A stretch of DNA of 64,000 nt from a virus (lineage: Duplodnaviria; Heunggongvirae; Uroviricota; Caudoviricetes): IMG/VR virus record IMGVR_UViG_3300031555_002904; one strand, given 5' to 3'. Numbering within the stretch: the stretch's first letter is position 1; each line of letters begins with the position of its first letter. Position numbers and translations under genes: made by a program. This document shows, in pieces, positions 6,048 to 54,135 of the stretch. The notes beneath the pieces were generated by a model, which saw nothing but the letters and a program-made list of their open reading frames with translations, did not search any database and was not told the origin of the DNA.

Positions 6048-6124
6048 ATCTATGATACAATGTACTCACAGTTGAGGGAGCGACGGCAAACCCACAACAC
6101 ACTAATGAAACGAGGTAAAGACCA

Positions 6125-6787
6125 ATGAAAACAATGTACGCAACCCTTGATACCGAAACAGTTGGCGGTATCGACCACCCCAAGGGATTTTACAATGTGG
6201 GTGTGGTTATCCACGATAGAGAGGGCAACATCTGTGCGACCACTTCTCTGTTGGTGATGGAGTTCTATGACGAAATCAAGAACGACGACTACGCAAAGAA
6301 GAATTTCCACATCTATGCCGAGCGACTGGCAAGGGGCGAAATCTCCGCAGTTGCCACCGAAGCCGAAGCACTCAACATCGTGCGAAATCTCCTGCGTTTT
6401 TATAATGTCAAGTACATCTGTGCTTACAATTCCGCTTTTGACCTCTGCAAGACCTGTTGCCGTGAGTTGGCTGACGAGTTCCAGTTCATCGACCTTTGGT
6501 TGATGGCATTGCAGACCATTACTCATCAGAAAGGCTATGCCAAGTTCTGTCGAGAGAATGGCTACAAGTCCAAGGGTGGAAAGACTTGTGCCACCTCTGC
6601 CGAAAGTGTGTACGCATACATCAGCGGAAATGGTGAGTACATCGAGGAACACACCGCACTGGCTGACGCACTGATTGAAATGGCAATCTTTGTGCGGTGT
6701 GTCCGCACCCACAAGCACTATACAAAGAATGTGCATTGTTGGGATTGCACCGAGCGAAACAAGGTATTCCCCAAGTGGGCGGTGTAA
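6125..6787 (+). CDS. DEDDh 3'-5' exonuclease
   Basis: LDTET (ExoI), AYNSAFD (ExoII), HTALADA (ExoIII). Confidence 0.85.
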   Translation: MKTMYATLDTETVGGIDHPKGFYNVGVVIHDREGNICATTSLLVMEFYDEIKNDDYAKKNFHIYAERLARGEISAVATEAEALNIVRNLLRFYNVKYICAYNSAFDLCKTCCRELADEFQFIDLWLMALQTITHQKGYAKFCRENGYKSKGGKTCATSAESVYAYISGNGEYIEEHTALADALIEMAIFVRCVRTHKHYTKNVHCWDCTERNKVFPKWAV

Positions 6788-12870: not shown

Positions 12871-13071
12871 GAAAAACCGCCTAAAATGGGCGGTTTTTCG
12901 CGTTTTTGTGTAATTTTTTGTGCGGTTTACATAATTTTCGGCCGCCCGCAGACAAATGTCGCGGGCGTTATTTAGCATTTTGCACAACCCAGGCATTTTT
13001 TCAAATCGAATTTTTGTGCACTATTACCACTTGCATTGTCCCGCAATTATGGTATAATACTATTGTCCGAT

Positions 13072-13168
13072 GGGGATGGGCTGGCTAGGAAAGTCAGAGG
13101 ATGCTTTGGTCTAAGCCTTCATCCTGCCGAGGGTGTGCAAGGGGGTTCGATTCCCCCCATCTCCACCA
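13072..13168 (+). ncRNA. tRNA-like RNA with Ala identity (G3.U70, A73, CCA) and aberrant anticodon arm
   Basis: GGGGATG/CATCTCC-ACCA acceptor; GGGGG-TTCGATT-CCCCC T arm; own promoter. Confidence 0.65.
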
Positions 13169-13237
13169 AAAAAAGTGCTTGACAAATGGCACAAAGTATG
13201 CTATAATAAGTTCATCAAATGAAGGAGATTGATACCC

Positions 13238-13843
13238 ATGAGAAACATTAAACTTTTCGAGCGTGAGTTGGCGCTCATCGTAAATGAAGACCTGCGCATG
13301 GCTACCAAGTCTTATCTGGAAGAAGCCACACCTGACTACTTTTGGACGGACGGCGCATCCAGTTCCGGCAAGTATCATCCGAAGTTCGCCCACGGCATCG
13401 GCGGTACTATTCGCCACACCAAGGCAGTTGTGATGTTTGCAGAAGAGTTGCTCCGCATGAGTTCCTATGCGTACATGAGAGCAGAGTACAAGGATTATGT
13501 CATTGTCGCCTGCCTTATCCACGACACGAACAAGTACGGCATCAAGGACTTTGACAAGTCCCAGTACGCAGACCATGCACGAAACGCCGCCGAGAGTTTC
13601 ACCCATTGGTGCGAGGAACAGTACGGATTTACTCCCCATTTCTTGCTGACAAATGCGGTTGCAAGCCACATGGGGCAGTGGTCTACCGACAGAGAGGACA
13701 GACCTTTTACTTCCGTAGACAGATGTGTTCACATGGCGGACTACATGGCAAGCCGTTCTTTCATCGACATTCCTGCAATCAGCGAGGAATACAGCACGAT
13801 TGCGTGCGAATGGGCGGCTCAAAACCACGAACTGCCTTTCTAA
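13238..13843 (+). CDS. HD-domain phosphohydrolase
   Basis: ASSSGKYHP...H...LIHD...HMG...ADY pattern. Confidence 0.85.
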   Translation: MRNIKLFERELALIVNEDLRMATKSYLEEATPDYFWTDGASSSGKYHPKFAHGIGGTIRHTKAVVMFAEELLRMSSYAYMRAEYKDYVIVACLIHDTNKYGIKDFDKSQYADHARNAAESFTHWCEEQYGFTPHFLLTNAVASHMGQWSTDREDRPFTSVDRCVHMADYMASRSFIDIPAISEEYSTIACEWAAQNHELPF

Positions 13844-16489: not shown

Positions 16490-16780
16490 TATCATACATT
16501 TGTAAGTTTTGTATTATTTGTATTTTTGTAATCATTTGGTAAAATCGTTTGTAAAATCTACTTTTATTTGTAAAATGTTTGTAAAAATTTTAGAAATTCC
16601 ACGGTTTTTGGCCGTCAACAAGCGCAGATGTTTCATCTACTTTACAAACTTCACCAATTTTACCAAACTCACCATCAGTACAAACTTTTGTATTTTTTGT
16701 AACTTTTGTATCATTTGTATTTTTGTAATTATTTGGTAAATTTGTTTGTAAATTTTGTGAATCTTTTTGTAAAAGTTCTG
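16490..16780. repeat. iteron-like TTTGTA(A) direct repeats, candidate replication origin
   Basis: about 15 TTTGTA/TTGGTAAA copies in and just downstream of the initiator-like gene; AT-rich TTTCA repeats at 16070-16160. Confidence 0.55.
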
Positions 16781-17174
16781 GATAAGTAGAACGGATAACC
16801 CCCAGCCGATAGCTCACTATTTGCTGCGTCAAGCCCAGTCTCTCCGCAATTTCACGCTGGCGCATGCCTCGCAGATGCAAGTCCGCAATCTGATCCAATT
16901 TTTGATCCAAAATTTTCTTTTGTCTCTGCGTTTCCACTTTCTAATCATACTTAACATGATCCTTCCCCGCCACAACCTTTGTAGGTTCTAACATCAATTC
17001 AACAATCATATCATCACTGCTAATCTATCCACATAAAACCATTTCAATGGCACTAATAGCCAACTCTCCGGCTTTCTCTGGATCAACAGCATATAATTTC
17101 TTTATCTATTCAAAAGTGCTCTAATAAATAACACCACTTTGTCTAACTTCTAAATCTTTGAAATTCTCAATCAC
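16590..17174 (-). CDS. phage replication-initiator-like protein with HTH (4 in-frame TAG=Gln)
   Basis: GTG start after GGAGG; MIENFKDLEVRQSGVIY*STFE*IKKLYAVDPEKAGELAISAIEMVLCG*...YD*KVETQ... continues into HTH (MRQREIAERLGLTQQIVSYRL); N-terminus is DUF6291-like; internal repeats. Confidence 0.65.
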
Positions 17175-17358
17175 TGCGGCCGACCTCCCCCATAAGCGCC
17201 TCAAAGGCAGCTGTAAAGCGCGGAGTAGCCTCGTATACCCAACAATTTAGGTGCGGATTTTGCGGATTTTTCATTTCCGTAATATGTACGAATCCCTATT
17301 GCTATAGCGCAACATGGAGTCGCAATGAATAAACTATTTTAGTCTTCGTATTTAGCAT
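17167..17358 (-). CDS. DUF5659-like small protein (2 in-frame TAG=Gln)
   Basis: MLNTKTKIVYSLRLHVAL*Q*GFVHITEMKNPQNPHLNCWVYE...; AAGGAG RBS. Confidence 0.6.
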
Positions 17359-17371
17359 TAATATTGGCTCC

Positions 17372-17509
17372 TTATCTATCAAATTTTTCGTCTAATAACT
17401 CTTTAATTAGACGGCGAATAACCTAAGATATGGTGAGATCATTATCTTCAGCATATTCTTGTAATAACTGTTTCTCAATATCATCAATTTTTATAGTAAT
17501 TGAGGTCAC
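17372..17509 (-). CDS. ribbon-helix-helix (CopG-like) regulator (1 in-frame TAG=Gln)
   Basis: MTSITIKIDDIEKQLLQEYAEDNDLTIS*VIRRLIKELL fits the RHH consensus with Q; GGAGGTG RBS. Confidence 0.75.
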
Positions 17510-17772
17510 AGAATCACCTCCTATACTTATTATAAAAATCTAACTAATAAAATTGTCTTACCCTGTCCTACGCTGTCTTACCTTTCTTATTGTAAATAAG
17601 CCCAACTAAATCTATCTAATTGATTTTATAAAAAAAATATGATATAATATATATGTAAGATAAAGAAAAAGAAAAAGACAAGTAACCGTCAGAATTATCA
17701 AAATCCGTTTTTCGGAAATGTCTGACAACGTCCGACAAACCCACAAAAAAAGCCATTTGGAGGTAAAAGATT

Positions 17773-18033
17773 ATGAACGGCGTTGGCAATGATTTTCACC
17801 CCTCAGCAATCGAAAATCACATCTATGATATAATCAACACTGAAGAGCATACCGTGTCGTCCAGTGAATACGATCGTACTATCGGTCCTGCAATTATGGA
17901 ATATCTTGAGGACTGTTCCGTACAGTTCAATATGATCGAAGATCCTTATCCCGATATGACGGGTGCATCCCTTTCCATTTGCTGGATTGAGACCGGCTAC
18001 CTCCATCACATTGTACTCAATCTCAAGTACTAA
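17773..18033 (+). CDS. hypothetical protein
   Basis: GGAGG RBS; first of a coupled operon. Confidence 0.65.
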   Translation: MNGVGNDFHPSAIENHIYDIINTEEHTVSSSEYDRTIGPAIMEYLEDCSVQFNMIEDPYPDMTGASLSICWIETGYLHHIVLNLKY

Positions 18034-18045
18034 GGAGACCAACCC

Positions 18046-18330
18046 ATGAACTATATTCGTATCAATCACGATTTTATCAACCTGCGGCAGGCCTTGCATA
18101 TACGCGTCCTACAACCCAGTAACTCTGAGATCGCTATCCAGGTCATTTACCCGGATCGAGTAGAAACTATTCGCCTCGATACCCATGCCAGTGAGATTTC
18201 TGAGCTTCCTGTTCTCACCCGAGAGGCCATCTCCGCAAGCATCCAAGATGCTATCGCCAGTTGCGCTGATGCGGACTGCGAGAATGTTGCATCATATGTG
18301 GAGGACAATCTCGATGACGAAGATTACTAA
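18046..18330 (+). CDS. hypothetical protein
   Basis: AAGGAG RBS. Confidence 0.65.
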   Translation: MNYIRINHDFINLRQALHIRVLQPSNSEIAIQVIYPDRVETIRLDTHASEISELPVLTREAISASIQDAIASCADADCENVASYVEDNLDDEDY

Positions 18331-48403: not shown

Positions 48404-48811
48404 ATGTTATTTGAAACTAATCGTGATAAGGGTCGCGCTGGTATGGCGATAGCAATCGCTTATTTTGGAGCCAATGGATATACAGTAAATGTGCCTCTAA
48501 ATGATACTCAATGGTATGATTTAGTTATTGAAAAAGACGGTGAGTTCAAAACCGTTCAATGTAAAGCAACTGGCAGTGCTGATAATGTAGTTTCTATGAA
48601 GAGTGCGGGTGGCACAAAAGGTAGTGTTTATGATTCTGTACTAAATCATCCTGTTGATTATTTGTTCTGCTTAGATGGCGAAATGCATATGTATGTTATT
48701 CCAGTGCAAGATTTGCGAGATTATGGAGTAAGTAAACAAATTTCTTTGCGTACTCAAAAATCTGCAAATGGACAAGGTTTCCAAACTTATCAATATATGG
48801 TGTCTTTGTAA
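48404..48811 (+). CDS. PD-(D/E)XK endonuclease (I-Ssp6803I/PDDEXK_5-like)
   Basis: KGRAG...GYTV..P..D..YDLVI...VQCK. Confidence 0.75.
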   Translation: MLFETNRDKGRAGMAIAIAYFGANGYTVNVPLNDTQWYDLVIEKDGEFKTVQCKATGSADNVVSMKSAGGTKGSVYDSVLNHPVDYLFCLDGEMHMYVIPVQDLRDYGVSKQISLRTQKSANGQGFQTYQYMVSL

Positions 48812-48819
48812 TACCATAT

Positions 48820-48905
48820 GGGTCAGTAGAGTGTAATTGGTACCACCCCCGACTGTAAATCGGGTTCGTATGACATTGTAGGTTCAAGTCCTACCTGGCC
48901 CACCA
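48820..48905 (+). tRNA. tRNA-Tyr(GTA)
   Basis: CCCGA-CTGTAAA-TCGGG; class II; CCA. Confidence 0.85.
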
Positions 48906-51712: not shown

Positions 51713-51787
51713 TCCGGTGTCGTTCAATGGCTAGGACGGCGGGCTCTAACCCCGCATATCTCTGTTCGAGTCAGAGCGCCGGTGCCA
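51713..51787 (+). tRNA. amber suppressor tRNA(CTA), Gln-like
   Basis: GCGGG-CTCTAAC-CCCGC; unpaired 1:72, G73, CCA. Confidence 0.9.
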
Positions 51788-51862
51788 TGGGGGTTAGCGT
51801 AGCGGTAGCGCGGCGGTCTCTAAAACCGTTGTGGCTGGGTTCGAATCCCAGGCCCCCCGCCA
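51788..51862 (+). tRNA. amber suppressor tRNA(CTA), Gln-like
   Basis: GCGGT-CTCTAAA-ACCGT; TGGGGGT acceptor like the two tRNA-Gln genes; G73, CCA. Confidence 0.9.
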
Positions 51863-52660: not shown

Positions 52661-52787
52661 TATAAATAATTCGCCAGGTGTTGATACTGGTCCGTCTATT
52701 GCGGATAGAAGCTCGAGGAGGGCTAGCTCGCAAATTCCGTTATTAACAGGTGGCCTCGACGGAAAAGTAATTATTTATAGAAACACT

Positions 52788-52921
52788 GAGAGCCATACAG
52801 CAAACCAGCTTGTACTTAATAGTACAGATCGCTACTTCAAGTAGCTTCTATGATGACTTAACAGTCGCGTTTTTAAATGATAGAAAGAAGAATGGTTTTA
52901 CTAAAAAAACTTTCGGCTCTC
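52788..52921 (+). ncRNA. ACAGCAA-stem RNA M (degenerate permuted tRNA-like arms)
   Basis: GAGAGCC/GGCTCTC termini; hairpins TGTACT..AGTACA and GCTAC-TTCAA-GTAGC. Confidence 0.65.
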
Positions 52922-53012
52922 CGGGAATGTGATAATCAGTAGTAGATGTGATGAGGCTCTCGACACTCATCATCGCATAAATGAAAGTTACCACCAAAGG
53001 AGAGTATTTATA

Positions 53013-53106
53013 CAAGACATATACAGCAAAATTTTCAAAATGATAATACTCAATATTTGACAAACAAACATAGAGAATGATCTTTTTAGAAACATCTTAT
53101 GTCTTG
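53013..53106 (+). ncRNA. ACAGCAA-stem RNA N
   Basis: CAAGACATA/TATGTCTTG termini. Confidence 0.68.
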
Positions 53107-53150
53107 CGGGATGGGTCAACAAAAGGCCCATCCCACTTTTCCCTTCATAT

Positions 53151-53698
53151 GCGCCGCTAGCTCAGCAGGTTTCAGAGCACCGCCCTTTTCACACAGGAGA
53201 AGAAAGTATTTTCCCAGGAGGTGAATTAAGTGTTAAACACTCATTTCCAAGGTGAAATTACTGAACTCCAAGTTGCCGAATCGTTTTTGACATTGGGGTA
53301 TCAAGTGTGTAAGCCTTTGGTATCTGATAGTCGCTATGACTTTATCGTTGATATCAACCATCAGTTATATCGTATTCAAGTAAAGACATCATCATTGAGT
53401 GAAGATGAAGATTATATTGAGTTTAAGACTCAATCCTCTCATACAAATACTCAAAAGACAGTATATCAATCTTATTCTGCGGATGACATTGATTATTTTG
53501 CTACAATGCATAATCATCAGTGCTATCTTGTTCCAGTTGATAAAGCTGGTAGTCGTTCTTGTAGATTGCGTTTAAAGCCTACAAAGAATGGTCAGACTAA
53601 GAATATCAATTTCGCAAAAGATTTCAAACTTGAAGATACTTTCATCGAATGACTGAAAAAGGCGGGTGTCCTGGGTTCGAATCCCAGGCGGCGCACCA
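53151..53698 (+). tRNA. tRNA-Lys(TTT) split in the anticodon loop by a ~469-nt endonuclease-encoding insertion
   Basis: 5' half 53151-53189 (..CCGCC-CTTTT), 3' half 53659-53698 (AA-GGCGG..GCGGCGC-ACCA); halves pair perfectly. Confidence 0.8.
53230..53652 (+). CDS. PD-(D/E)XK homing-endonuclease-like protein inside tRNA-Lys
   Basis: GEITE...GYQVCKP..DSRYDFIVD...RIQVKT...Y..DDIDYFA; GGAGGTG RBS. Confidence 0.85.
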   Translation: MLNTHFQGEITELQVAESFLTLGYQVCKPLVSDSRYDFIVDINHQLYRIQVKTSSLSEDEDYIEFKTQSSHTNTQKTVYQSYSADDIDYFATMHNHQCYLVPVDKAGSRSCRLRLKPTKNGQTKNINFAKDFKLEDTFIE

Positions 53699-53931
53699 AG
53701 TCATTATTGCTCGACCGGTCTCGCCTTAGTGCACTGGGAGAAATTCCTCGAGACCGCCCTATGGGGTGCGAATAAGGTTTTACAGTTGGAACTAAGTGGC
53801 AATCGGATATCTGGAAATCAGATCCGACCTAAGTCCAAAGATTAGCCTTATTCGCTGTTTTTTATTTTATTTGATTTTTATAAAAAAATATGTTATAATA
53901 TATATGTAAGATAAAGAAAGGGGAAAATCCT

Positions 53932-54135
53932 ATGGAAATCAATATTGACAAGGAAATTGATAATCATAGATGCCCTACAATATGTTTATGCACTGTGGCA
54001 ACAACTTGCTATGAGCCAATAGAAAGAGAGCAAAGATGTTATCGTTGTTGGAAAGGATATTGCCAAGAGCATAACATTACAATTATCTACGATAATATAC
54101 CACGCCCGTTTAGCTCAGCTGGTCAGAGCACCTGA
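53932..54135 (+). CDS. small Cys-rich protein; 3' end overlaps tRNA-Lys(CTT)
   Basis: after promoter and RBS; CPTIC..CYRC..C. Confidence 0.45.
   Translation: MEINIDKEIDNHRCPTICLCTVATTCYEPIEREQRCYRCWKGYCQEHNITIIYDNIPRPFSSAGQST

Follow-up and report, generated by a model that had tools for sequence, protein, structure and literature searches.

To our knowledge, the transfer RNA (tRNA) introns known from bacteria and phages are all self-splicing ribozymes, and protein-catalysed tRNA splicing is held to be archaeal and eukaryotic. Here we describe an endonuclease gene that splits a tRNA-Lys(UUU) gene of a tailed virus (Caudoviricetes, IMG/VR virus record IMGVR_UViG_3300031555_002904) in its anticodon loop, at positions 53151-53698 of a stretch of 64,000 nucleotides (nt), as found both by reading the sequence and by ARAGORN in intron mode. 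This whole stretch, which we call the window, represents positions 193889-257888, minus strand, of the 402,311-base-pair (bp) record, denoted G000, and contains an array of 42 tRNA genes. Two readings of the insert are considered, a new kind of intron that proteins would splice in bacterial viruses, or a selfish gene by which a tRNA is put out of action; the endonuclease-only family to which the insert belongs matches neither the ribozyme picture nor the archaeal and eukaryotic protein-splicing picture.

The closest described system is the group I intron in the tRNA-fMet gene of Synechocystis PCC 6803, which is 655 nt long and includes an open reading frame (ORF) of 150 amino acids (aa) for the endonuclease I-Ssp6803I (PMC1995217). 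The two elements are alike in having a PF11645 endonuclease, a tRNA host gene and mobility, but the Synechocystis intron leaves about 200 nt for the ribozyme, whereas the window insert leaves 46 nt, has no detectable core and does not end in G. Moreover, the Synechocystis intron has the group I helices P1 and P10, while the ends of the window insert pair with the anticodon instead. The Synechocystis insertion point reportedly lies directly 3' of the anticodon, as it does here.

In other respects the insert resembles the archaeal bulge-helix-bulge introns of tRNAs and rRNAs, which are processed by EndA and RtcB. Also in these introns there is no ribozyme, a helix between exon and intron ends defines the splice sites, the anticodon pairs with the intron, and a homing endonuclease gene can be carried (in some cases of the LAGLIDADG type). 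However, the window insert has neither the 3-nt bulges nor the 4-bp central helix, its helix being continuous from U33:A37 through the junctions; its junction is at 36/37 and not at 37/38; and its host is a bacterial virus. We rejected the reading as a bulge-helix-bulge intron on the basis of the helix without bulges; EndA (PF01974) and RtcB (PF01139) are also absent from the 402-kb record. The protein-spliced mobile intron that we propose below would follow the logic of archaeal introns with endonuclease genes, but the structure of its splice sites would be another one.

A third point of comparison is phage T4, in which the host PrrC cuts the anticodon loop of tRNA-Lys at 33/34 and Pnkp and Rnl1 reseal it. 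There too a phage RNA ligase acts on a broken tRNA-Lys anticodon loop, as in the ligation proposed here, but the T4 repair answers a host attack and involves no intron, and the ligase of the window phage, whose role we infer, is not of the T4 Rnl1 type (PF09511 is absent from the record). As for earlier surveys, the catalogue of bacterial tRNA introns by Williams 2020 (bioRxiv 10.1101/2020.01.27.920355) required a match to a group I covariance model, so that ORF-only inserts like that of the window would have been missed, and none is described in it. Our literature search, including the review PMC7824862, found no description of ORF-only tRNA inserts.

Both halves of the split tRNA-Lys are undamaged, as stated in the initial annotation of the window and as seen by sequence reading and ARAGORN: the pairing is complete in the acceptor stem (7/7) and in the anticodon stem (CCGCC/GGCGG, 5/5), the gene includes the CCA, and the T arm is canonical. 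The same annotation had divided the insert into a 40-nt leader, a 423-nt PD-(D/E)XK ORF related to I-Ssp6803I and a 6-nt trailer, and this description stands. Precisely, the ORF matches PF11645 with E = 1.5e-31 and 109.7 bits (curated cut-off 26.1), it also matches phrog_5018, and the sole solved relative of its product is I-Ssp6803I itself (PDB 2OST, E = 7.6e-13). Residues E12, D37, D41, Q50 and K52, which do not vary among 7 relatives, correspond in the alignment to the motif of 2OST, hence both the profile match and the active-site acidic and lysine residues place the product in the PDDEXK_5/I-Ssp6803I family. Inspection of sequence and fold found neither a T-arm-like hairpin nor a CCA-like 3' tail within the insert, and the idea of a tRNA-shaped insert for RNase P/Z was set aside on these grounds.

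The boundaries of the insert were established by comparison with insert-less relatives, as had been proposed at the outset. An uninterrupted tRNA-Lys(UUU) gene was found in the same record at G000 891-969, by running ARAGORN in intron mode on the whole record, and its 79 nt correspond letter for letter to the two exons joined. We also used four public runs in the form of assembled contigs, which can show presence and joins, not absence. In one of them, X19, whose kind of library is not on record, a contig of 1,613 nt with an even depth of 10.5 carries the window's own flanks with 53189 joined directly to 53659; it differs from the window in 5 letters out of 741 and has zero depth over the insert. 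Given these two insert-free alleles, the junction is unambiguous: the insert separates U36 from A37, with C as its first base and A53658 as its last. The alternative junction raised in the initial annotation (after U33, with terminal G53655 and anticodon AAA), which is also ARAGORN's own call for the split gene, is ruled out by the same two alleles. The claim that no other Lys(UUU) gene is present is valid for the window and fails for the 402-kb record, which holds the insert-free copy.

The site is thus polymorphic for presence and absence of a sequence with exact boundaries, as is the case for a mobile (homing) element, and the insert is mobile and optional at the window's own locus. That the element is a mobile insert in a phage, one part of the earlier interpretation, is supported by the empty allele with the window's flanks and by the related inserts in unrelated tRNA-Lys bodies that are described below.

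To define the family, two scans of IMG/VR were run with the protein and with a seven-sequence profile, which gave 89 loci; 82 loci were analysed, represented by 80 loci of the profile scan, the window and a Met insert (L002). Nearly all the family loci are from phage contigs of 50-200 kb with tRNA arrays, and in 60 of the 82 the ORF is inside a tRNA anticodon loop, as an ORF-only insert at the same position. For these loci the junction was set at 36/37, the position demonstrated in the window, and the tRNA bodies were compared with those of uninterrupted tRNAs; the comparison confirmed the anticodons, as for L032 (Thr(UGU), score 60), L074 (Gly(UCC), score 61) and L089 (Trp). A sister insert of 463 nt (L071) is present in Enterococcus phage EFP01 (NC_047796), where only a hypothetical protein is annotated and no tRNA is called. 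A DNA search of the phage collection with positions 53000-53900 gave no match, and a metagenome scan with the first 24 nt of the insert gave nothing beyond two contigs already known. These loci are a large undescribed family of ribozyme-less endonuclease elements at 36/37 of phage tRNAs.

Within the Lys group, inserts with a near-identical leader sit in tRNA bodies differing at about 20 positions, all of them compensatory in stems. The occurrence of closely related inserts in clearly different tRNA-Lys bodies indicates horizontal spread, and the exons of this group keep perfect cloverleaves through many compensatory changes.

The initial annotation had also noticed that the ends of the insert lengthen the anticodon stem (UUUUCA/UGAAAA), which is correct and to which a further helix of 12 bp can now be added. 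The final three bases of the insert all pair with the anticodon in 46 of the 51 unique inserts, exclusively by Watson-Crick pairs in 32 of these, and the pairing spans 16 anticodon classes (AAA/UUU, AAG/CUU, AUG/CAU, ACA/UGU, UGG/CCA and UGC/GCA among them). When, as a control, the ends were shuffled among loci, the corresponding number had a mean of 8.5 and a maximum of 18. We counted the pairing at each position in 45 inserts (Table 1): the best-kept pairs are those near the junctions, each position of the rod shows 4-6 pair types with G-U common, and shifted registers give 20-69%. The tolerance of G-U and the many pair types argue for selection on RNA pairing and not for a DNA repeat. Target-site duplication was rejected as a source of the terminal complementarity, since it would give a direct and not an inverted repeat, and so was fold-back copying, which would give perfect repeats, whereas G-U pairs are common.

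Past the junction helix there is an internal loop and then a second helix, formed by the leader with the last codons or with the trailer. The loop is asymmetric, with one A opposite CA at 6-7 bp from the junction, and is kept in most members of the family. The window, with UUU/AAA, CA/UG and the 12-bp helix, follows the rule of the ORF-only anticodon-pairing inserts. C32 and A38 are unpaired in 34 of the 45 inserts, as in ordinary working tRNAs. Judging from this covariation, the insert ends and the anticodon form a continuous covarying RNA rod that lengthens the anticodon stem. Both junctions are in this one helix, three bp apart with a 3' stagger, so that U36 and A37 would face each other across the minor groove.

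The statement that the insert has no room for a group I core (P3-P9, about 200 nt) was borne out. The non-coding part of the insert consists of only 46 nt, and the covariance-model search that had been suggested gave no Rfam match at E<=10 in 52900-54000 for group I introns, group II introns or small self-cleaving ribozymes; none of these reached the gathering score over the whole window, and none matched at E<=1 in 15 related loci, 7 of them with short and 8 with long inserts. What makes the long inserts longer (657-846 nt) is just the size of their ORF, as in L089, which encodes a 236-aa protein with an extra C-terminal domain. In order to see a core overlapping the ORF, which would have contradicted the statement, we considered the synonymous codons of nine Lys-type relatives: their identity is flat along the ORF (0.47-0.74 per 10-codon window, 0.59 overall), with no constrained synonymous block of about 200 nt. 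Given this even variability, the coding sequence conceals no core of such a size, and an ORF-overlapping core was therefore rejected. The insert also departs from group I introns at its last base, where A53658 stands in place of the terminal G (omega G); across the family, this base is the one that matches anticodon base 34. Group I introns further have a U (rarely C) ahead of the 5' splice site, in a wobble pair within P1. The window has U36 there, but C, A and G occur in other family members, and the base pairs with the 3' end of the insert and not with an internal guide.

The record contains a mirror case. It is made of two collinear, diverged units (72 collinear matches over 66 kb, 73% identity, offset of about 203 kb), both of which have a separate array of about 40 tRNAs, and is probably two related phage genomes joined head to tail, because related complete genomes are 165-190 kb long with terminal repeats. 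In unit B, which includes the window, tRNA-Lys(UUU) is split and the Met site has no insert; in unit A, tRNA-Lys(UUU) is empty and the tRNA-Met(CAU) at G000 13059-13589 (minus strand; locus L002 1356-2076) is interrupted by an insert of 453 nt, which holds a 137-aa paralogue with 48% identity. The Met insert obeys the rod rule, as CAU pairs with the terminal AUG and 7 more bp follow. The acceptor stem of the split tRNA-Met has one C-U mismatch and two G-U pairs. The 40 tRNA pairs between the units have identities of 55-100%, with a median of about 80%, and the Lys(UUU) exons are 100% identical against only 68-80% for their flanks, a pattern which looks like recent gene conversion around the homing site.

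RNA data gave a weak hint of cleavage at the 5' junction. In run X2, a gut metatranscriptome, a 195-nt contig joins 53629-53699 to 53190-53313 with no shared letters, hence in the order insert end, whole 3' exon, CCA plus one A, and then the first insert base, 53190. The 20-mer over this permuted junction is absent from IMG/VR DNA. Whether it derives from a circular RNA of insert plus 3' exon or from a jump of the reverse transcriptase between RNA ends, such a contig implies that an RNA begins precisely at the 5' junction and that one finishes at the near-mature tRNA terminus; it is a single weak observation, exact to the base.

The reading that we tentatively rank first, with less than even confidence, is that the insert is removed by protein-dependent splicing. 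We do so because the junction pairs are the best kept, because the bases opposed to the anticodon have been re-matched in 16 classes, because the exons keep tRNA-specific features and because an RNA end maps exactly to the 5' junction. As DNA, the element would spread during co-infection, its endonuclease cutting at the anticodon stem-loop of tRNA genes that lack the insert. As RNA, the rod would make the two junctions face one another over the minor groove at a distance of 3 bp, and a protein nuclease leaving 5'-phosphate and 3'-OH would cut both; the candidates are the encoded endonuclease and another enzyme of host or phage. RNase III was discarded for this role, by reasoning only, its 2-nt stagger being unlike the 3-bp offset. 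An ATP-dependent RNA ligase would then reseal the anticodon loop and restore a working tRNA-Lys.

The candidate for the last step is a 472-aa RNA ligase encoded in the record (phrog_968, E = 4e-68), which has an N-terminal PHA02142 OB domain, scores 26.5 bits against the Pfam RNA_ligase model, just below its cut-off of 27, and has no solved relative by sequence. The ligase is found in 4 of 5 related phage genomes with split tRNAs, and AAA_33 kinase-like ORFs are also in the record; this set fits a ligation of 5'-phosphate and 3'-OH ends. I-Ssp6803I is said to cut DNA on either side of the anticodon triplet with 3-nt 3' overhangs, a geometry that would equal that of the two junctions in the rod. 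In a more specific version of protein-dependent splicing, which we regard as unlikely, the insert would be a mobile intron that is self-contained and works by proteins only: the PD-(D/E)XK endonuclease that it encodes, or a partner protein of the phage dedicated to this task, would read the rod as a mimic of the DNA target (anticodon stem plus triplet duplex) and cut both junctions with the same 3-nt 3' stagger as on DNA, and the ligase would seal U36 to A37.

Several points weigh against protein-dependent splicing, some of them in favour of an insert that is never removed from RNA. In this alternative, to which we assign a substantial probability, second to that of splicing, the endonuclease gene simply drove into a dispensable phage tRNA and disabled it, and both tRNA halves and the rod would be retained for their use to the selfish gene or because they lessen the damage that it does. 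Consistently, the sole long RNA contig over the locus, from the bovine metatranscriptome X1 (653 nt, depth 294), covers 53009-53664 of a variant strain unspliced and is abundant; X6 has no cover over the insert, and the join of 53189 to 53659 is in no contig of the three RNA runs X1, X2 and X6. Since a modified tRNA of 79 nt is hardly assembled, the missing join taken by itself says nothing either way, and the spliced product of the split gene would be indistinguishable from the product of the empty allele. The permuted junction, in turn, rests on a single contig with a depth of 2.5. With regard to enzymes, an unspliced insert needs no new one, and no candidate splicing nuclease is known for it: EndA and RtcB are absent from the record, as said above, PD-(D/E)XK homing endonucleases are DNA enzymes, and we know of no nuclease that makes cuts staggered by 3 nt in the two strands of a regular RNA helix. 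The ligase, being common to related phages, may serve ordinary tRNA repair, and relatives of the endonuclease gene also occur free-standing beside tRNAs, as at 48404-48811. Because phage tRNAs are dispensable, an insert that stays unspliced can be tolerated; a shortened T loop in L006/L007 represents a decayed exon in at least one relative; and the intact exons can equally stem from recent invasion with co-conversion, as horizontal spread into different tRNA-Lys bodies, if recent, would keep them looking intact. The tRNA-like fold could even act as a scaffold, with RNase P and RNase Z trimming the ends and both ends of the endonuclease mRNA protected, and the pairing could hide the anticodon from synthetases and anticodon nucleases. 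In engineered tRNA scaffolds a foreign RNA reportedly takes the place of the anticodon loop and prolongs the anticodon stem without a break; the logic is the same, the tRNA body giving processing and stability, but these scaffolds are man-made, and we know of no natural tRNA scaffold with an mRNA cargo. What a stabilising rod leaves unexplained is that the junction pairs are the best kept and that re-matching occurred in 16 classes. An RNA 5' end exactly at the first insert base is likewise unexpected for an unspliced insert, C32 and A38 are left unpaired as in functional tRNAs, and translation of the ORF must melt the rod, which contains the stop and the last codons, at odds with a purely protective role.

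Splicing by a ribozyme, through a new small motif made of the rod and the internal loop, an ORF-overlapping core or a trans-acting phage RNA (ROOL is conceivable), we consider very improbable. The conservation of the asymmetric internal loop in most family members would suit it, the permuted RNA junction could come from transesterification, and ROOL occurs in the same tRNA array and also near a sister insert in L011. Nevertheless, no Rfam family, the small self-cleaving ones included, matches at E<=10, the insert lacks a terminal G, and the nucleotide that precedes the 5' junction may be U, C, A or G. Both junctions are within a regular helix, which is badly suited to in-line attack, the synonymous variability is even and nothing ties ROOL to splicing. 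The least credible explanation, to which we give hardly any weight, is restoration at the DNA level, in which the insert would be excised precisely from some genomes and the empty alleles would be excision products and not ancestral sites. Precise empty alleles in the same record and at the same locus speak for it, but homing itself needs empty sites as targets, a hydrolytic nuclease cannot rejoin DNA precisely, and covariation that tolerates G-U speaks of RNA and not DNA pairing.

Table 1. Coordinates of the split tRNA-Lys(UUU), of the RNA ligase genes and pairing along the rod. Positions are those of the window unless preceded by G000; for rod pairs, i1 is the first and n the last base of the insert, counted in 45 inserts.
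Feature	Coordinates	Strand	Evidence or note
5' exon of tRNA-Lys(UUU), positions 1-36, 3' end is the anticodon UUU	53151..53189	+	100% identical to insert-free allele G000 891-969
Insert, 469 nt, ORF-only, ribozyme-less, first base C, last base A	53190..53658	+	two empty alleles; no Rfam group I/II match at E<=10
Leader, 40 nt, Shine-Dalgarno AGGAGG at 53216-53221	53190..53229	+	
Homing-endonuclease ORF, 423 nt, 140 aa, GTG start, TGA stop, PD-(D/E)XK family PDDEXK_5	53230..53652	+	PF11645, phrog_5018, 2OST
Trailer, 6 nt, CUGAAA, final AAA pairs with the anticodon	53653..53658	+	
3' exon of tRNA-Lys(UUU), A37 to CCA	53659..53698	+	sequence reading, ARAGORN, empty allele
Junction helix, 5' strand: U33-U36 and first two insert bases, UUUUCA	53186..53191	+	partner 53654-53659
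Junction helix, 3' strand: UGAAA and A37	53654..53659	+	pairs with 53186-53191
Second rod helix, 12 bp, 5' strand in leader	53202..53213	+	minimum-free-energy and centroid folds; equivalent leader/trailer helix in relatives
Second rod helix, 12 bp, 3' strand in last ORF codons	53632..53643	+	minimum-free-energy and centroid folds
RNA ligase genes	G000 186281-187696 and 384724-386130	minus	both units, 74% identity
Rod pair 33:37			100% paired
Rod pair 34:n			93% paired
Rod pair 35:n-1			100% paired
Rod pair 36:n-2			98% paired
Rod pair i1:n-3			98% paired
Rod pair i2:n-4			93% paired
Rod pair i3:n-5			93% paired
Rod pair i4:n-6			67% paired
Rod pair i5:n-7			91% paired
Rod pair i6:n-8			87% paired

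Other members of the nuclease family were noted in the record and elsewhere. The free-standing one at 48404-48811 (plus strand; 135 aa, phrog_5018) is separated by 8 nt from the tRNA-Tyr(GUA) that follows it (48820-48905); G000 2530-2811 holds a weaker relative, with an in-frame TAG; and haloarchaeal tailed viruses (HRTV, HJTV, HSTV; matches H6-H10 in the phage collection) encode members with 34% identity. In-frame TAG codons are found among relatives of the window phage, in the endonuclease ORF at L013 1501-1890 and in the RNA ligase gene at G003 16751-18163, and two adjacent tRNAs with CUA anticodons (amber suppressors) are at window 51713-51862. Together, the TAGs of L013 and G003 and the CUA tRNAs hint at TAG recoding in part of this phage group.

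Some tRNAs for which ARAGORN indicated short inserts (L050, L068/69, L073, L087 and G000 6101-6239) were evaluated as ORF-less derivatives of the family and rejected, as they do not follow the 36/37 rod rule. In L073 351-499, a Lys(UUU), the anticodon-loop insert of about 72 nt ends in a helix followed by CCAA; in L050 40-175, a Leu(UAA), an insert of about 49 nt follows position 32; neither has the 36/37 rod. The tRNA-like gene at window 47931-48069 is called by ARAGORN only if an insert of 42 nt is allowed for, and its copy in the other unit, G000 6101-6239, reads as a tRNA-Leu(UAA) with a 52-nt insert beside a duplicated anticodon-stem strand.

The window gene at 47931-48069 comes directly after a ROOL RNA (327.8 bits), which lies inside the tRNA array at 47309-47922, and the same array holds a drum RNA (78 bits) at 42605-42715; in a related contig a RAGATH-33 RNA is beside tRNAs (L005 209-337). 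Directly downstream of the split tRNA, at 53768-53855 on the plus strand, a hairpin matches positions 437-594 of the OLE RNA model with the middle deleted; at 53.4 bits against a gathering score of 50, it would be a partial OLE-like domain, unexpected in a phage. In one strain variant, 53690-53870 is replaced by 21 nt. The region 52787-53047, between tRNA-Gly and the split tRNA-Lys, has a very high metatranscriptome depth (4,500-8,000 in X1, up to 1,370 in X6). At 53867-53921 there is an AT-rich promoter-like element at which many contigs of all four runs branch or "go back", and which is probably a repeat that these phages employ at numerous sites.

The window is a good test case, because a single record offers split and empty alleles of two different tRNAs, together with the RNA hint of a cut at the 5' junction. 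If the insert is spliced, there would be a new splicing pathway in phages, and the ancestry of protein-spliced introns could be tested in a cultivable system, Enterococcus phage EFP01. If, furthermore, the insert is a protein-only mobile intron, it would be the first case of protein-catalysed tRNA splicing in the bacterial world, with a homing endonuclease doubling as splicing nuclease. If it is not spliced, the family would represent a natural "tRNA scaffold" for the mRNA of a selfish gene, and a new way in which homing endonucleases erode phage tRNA sets.

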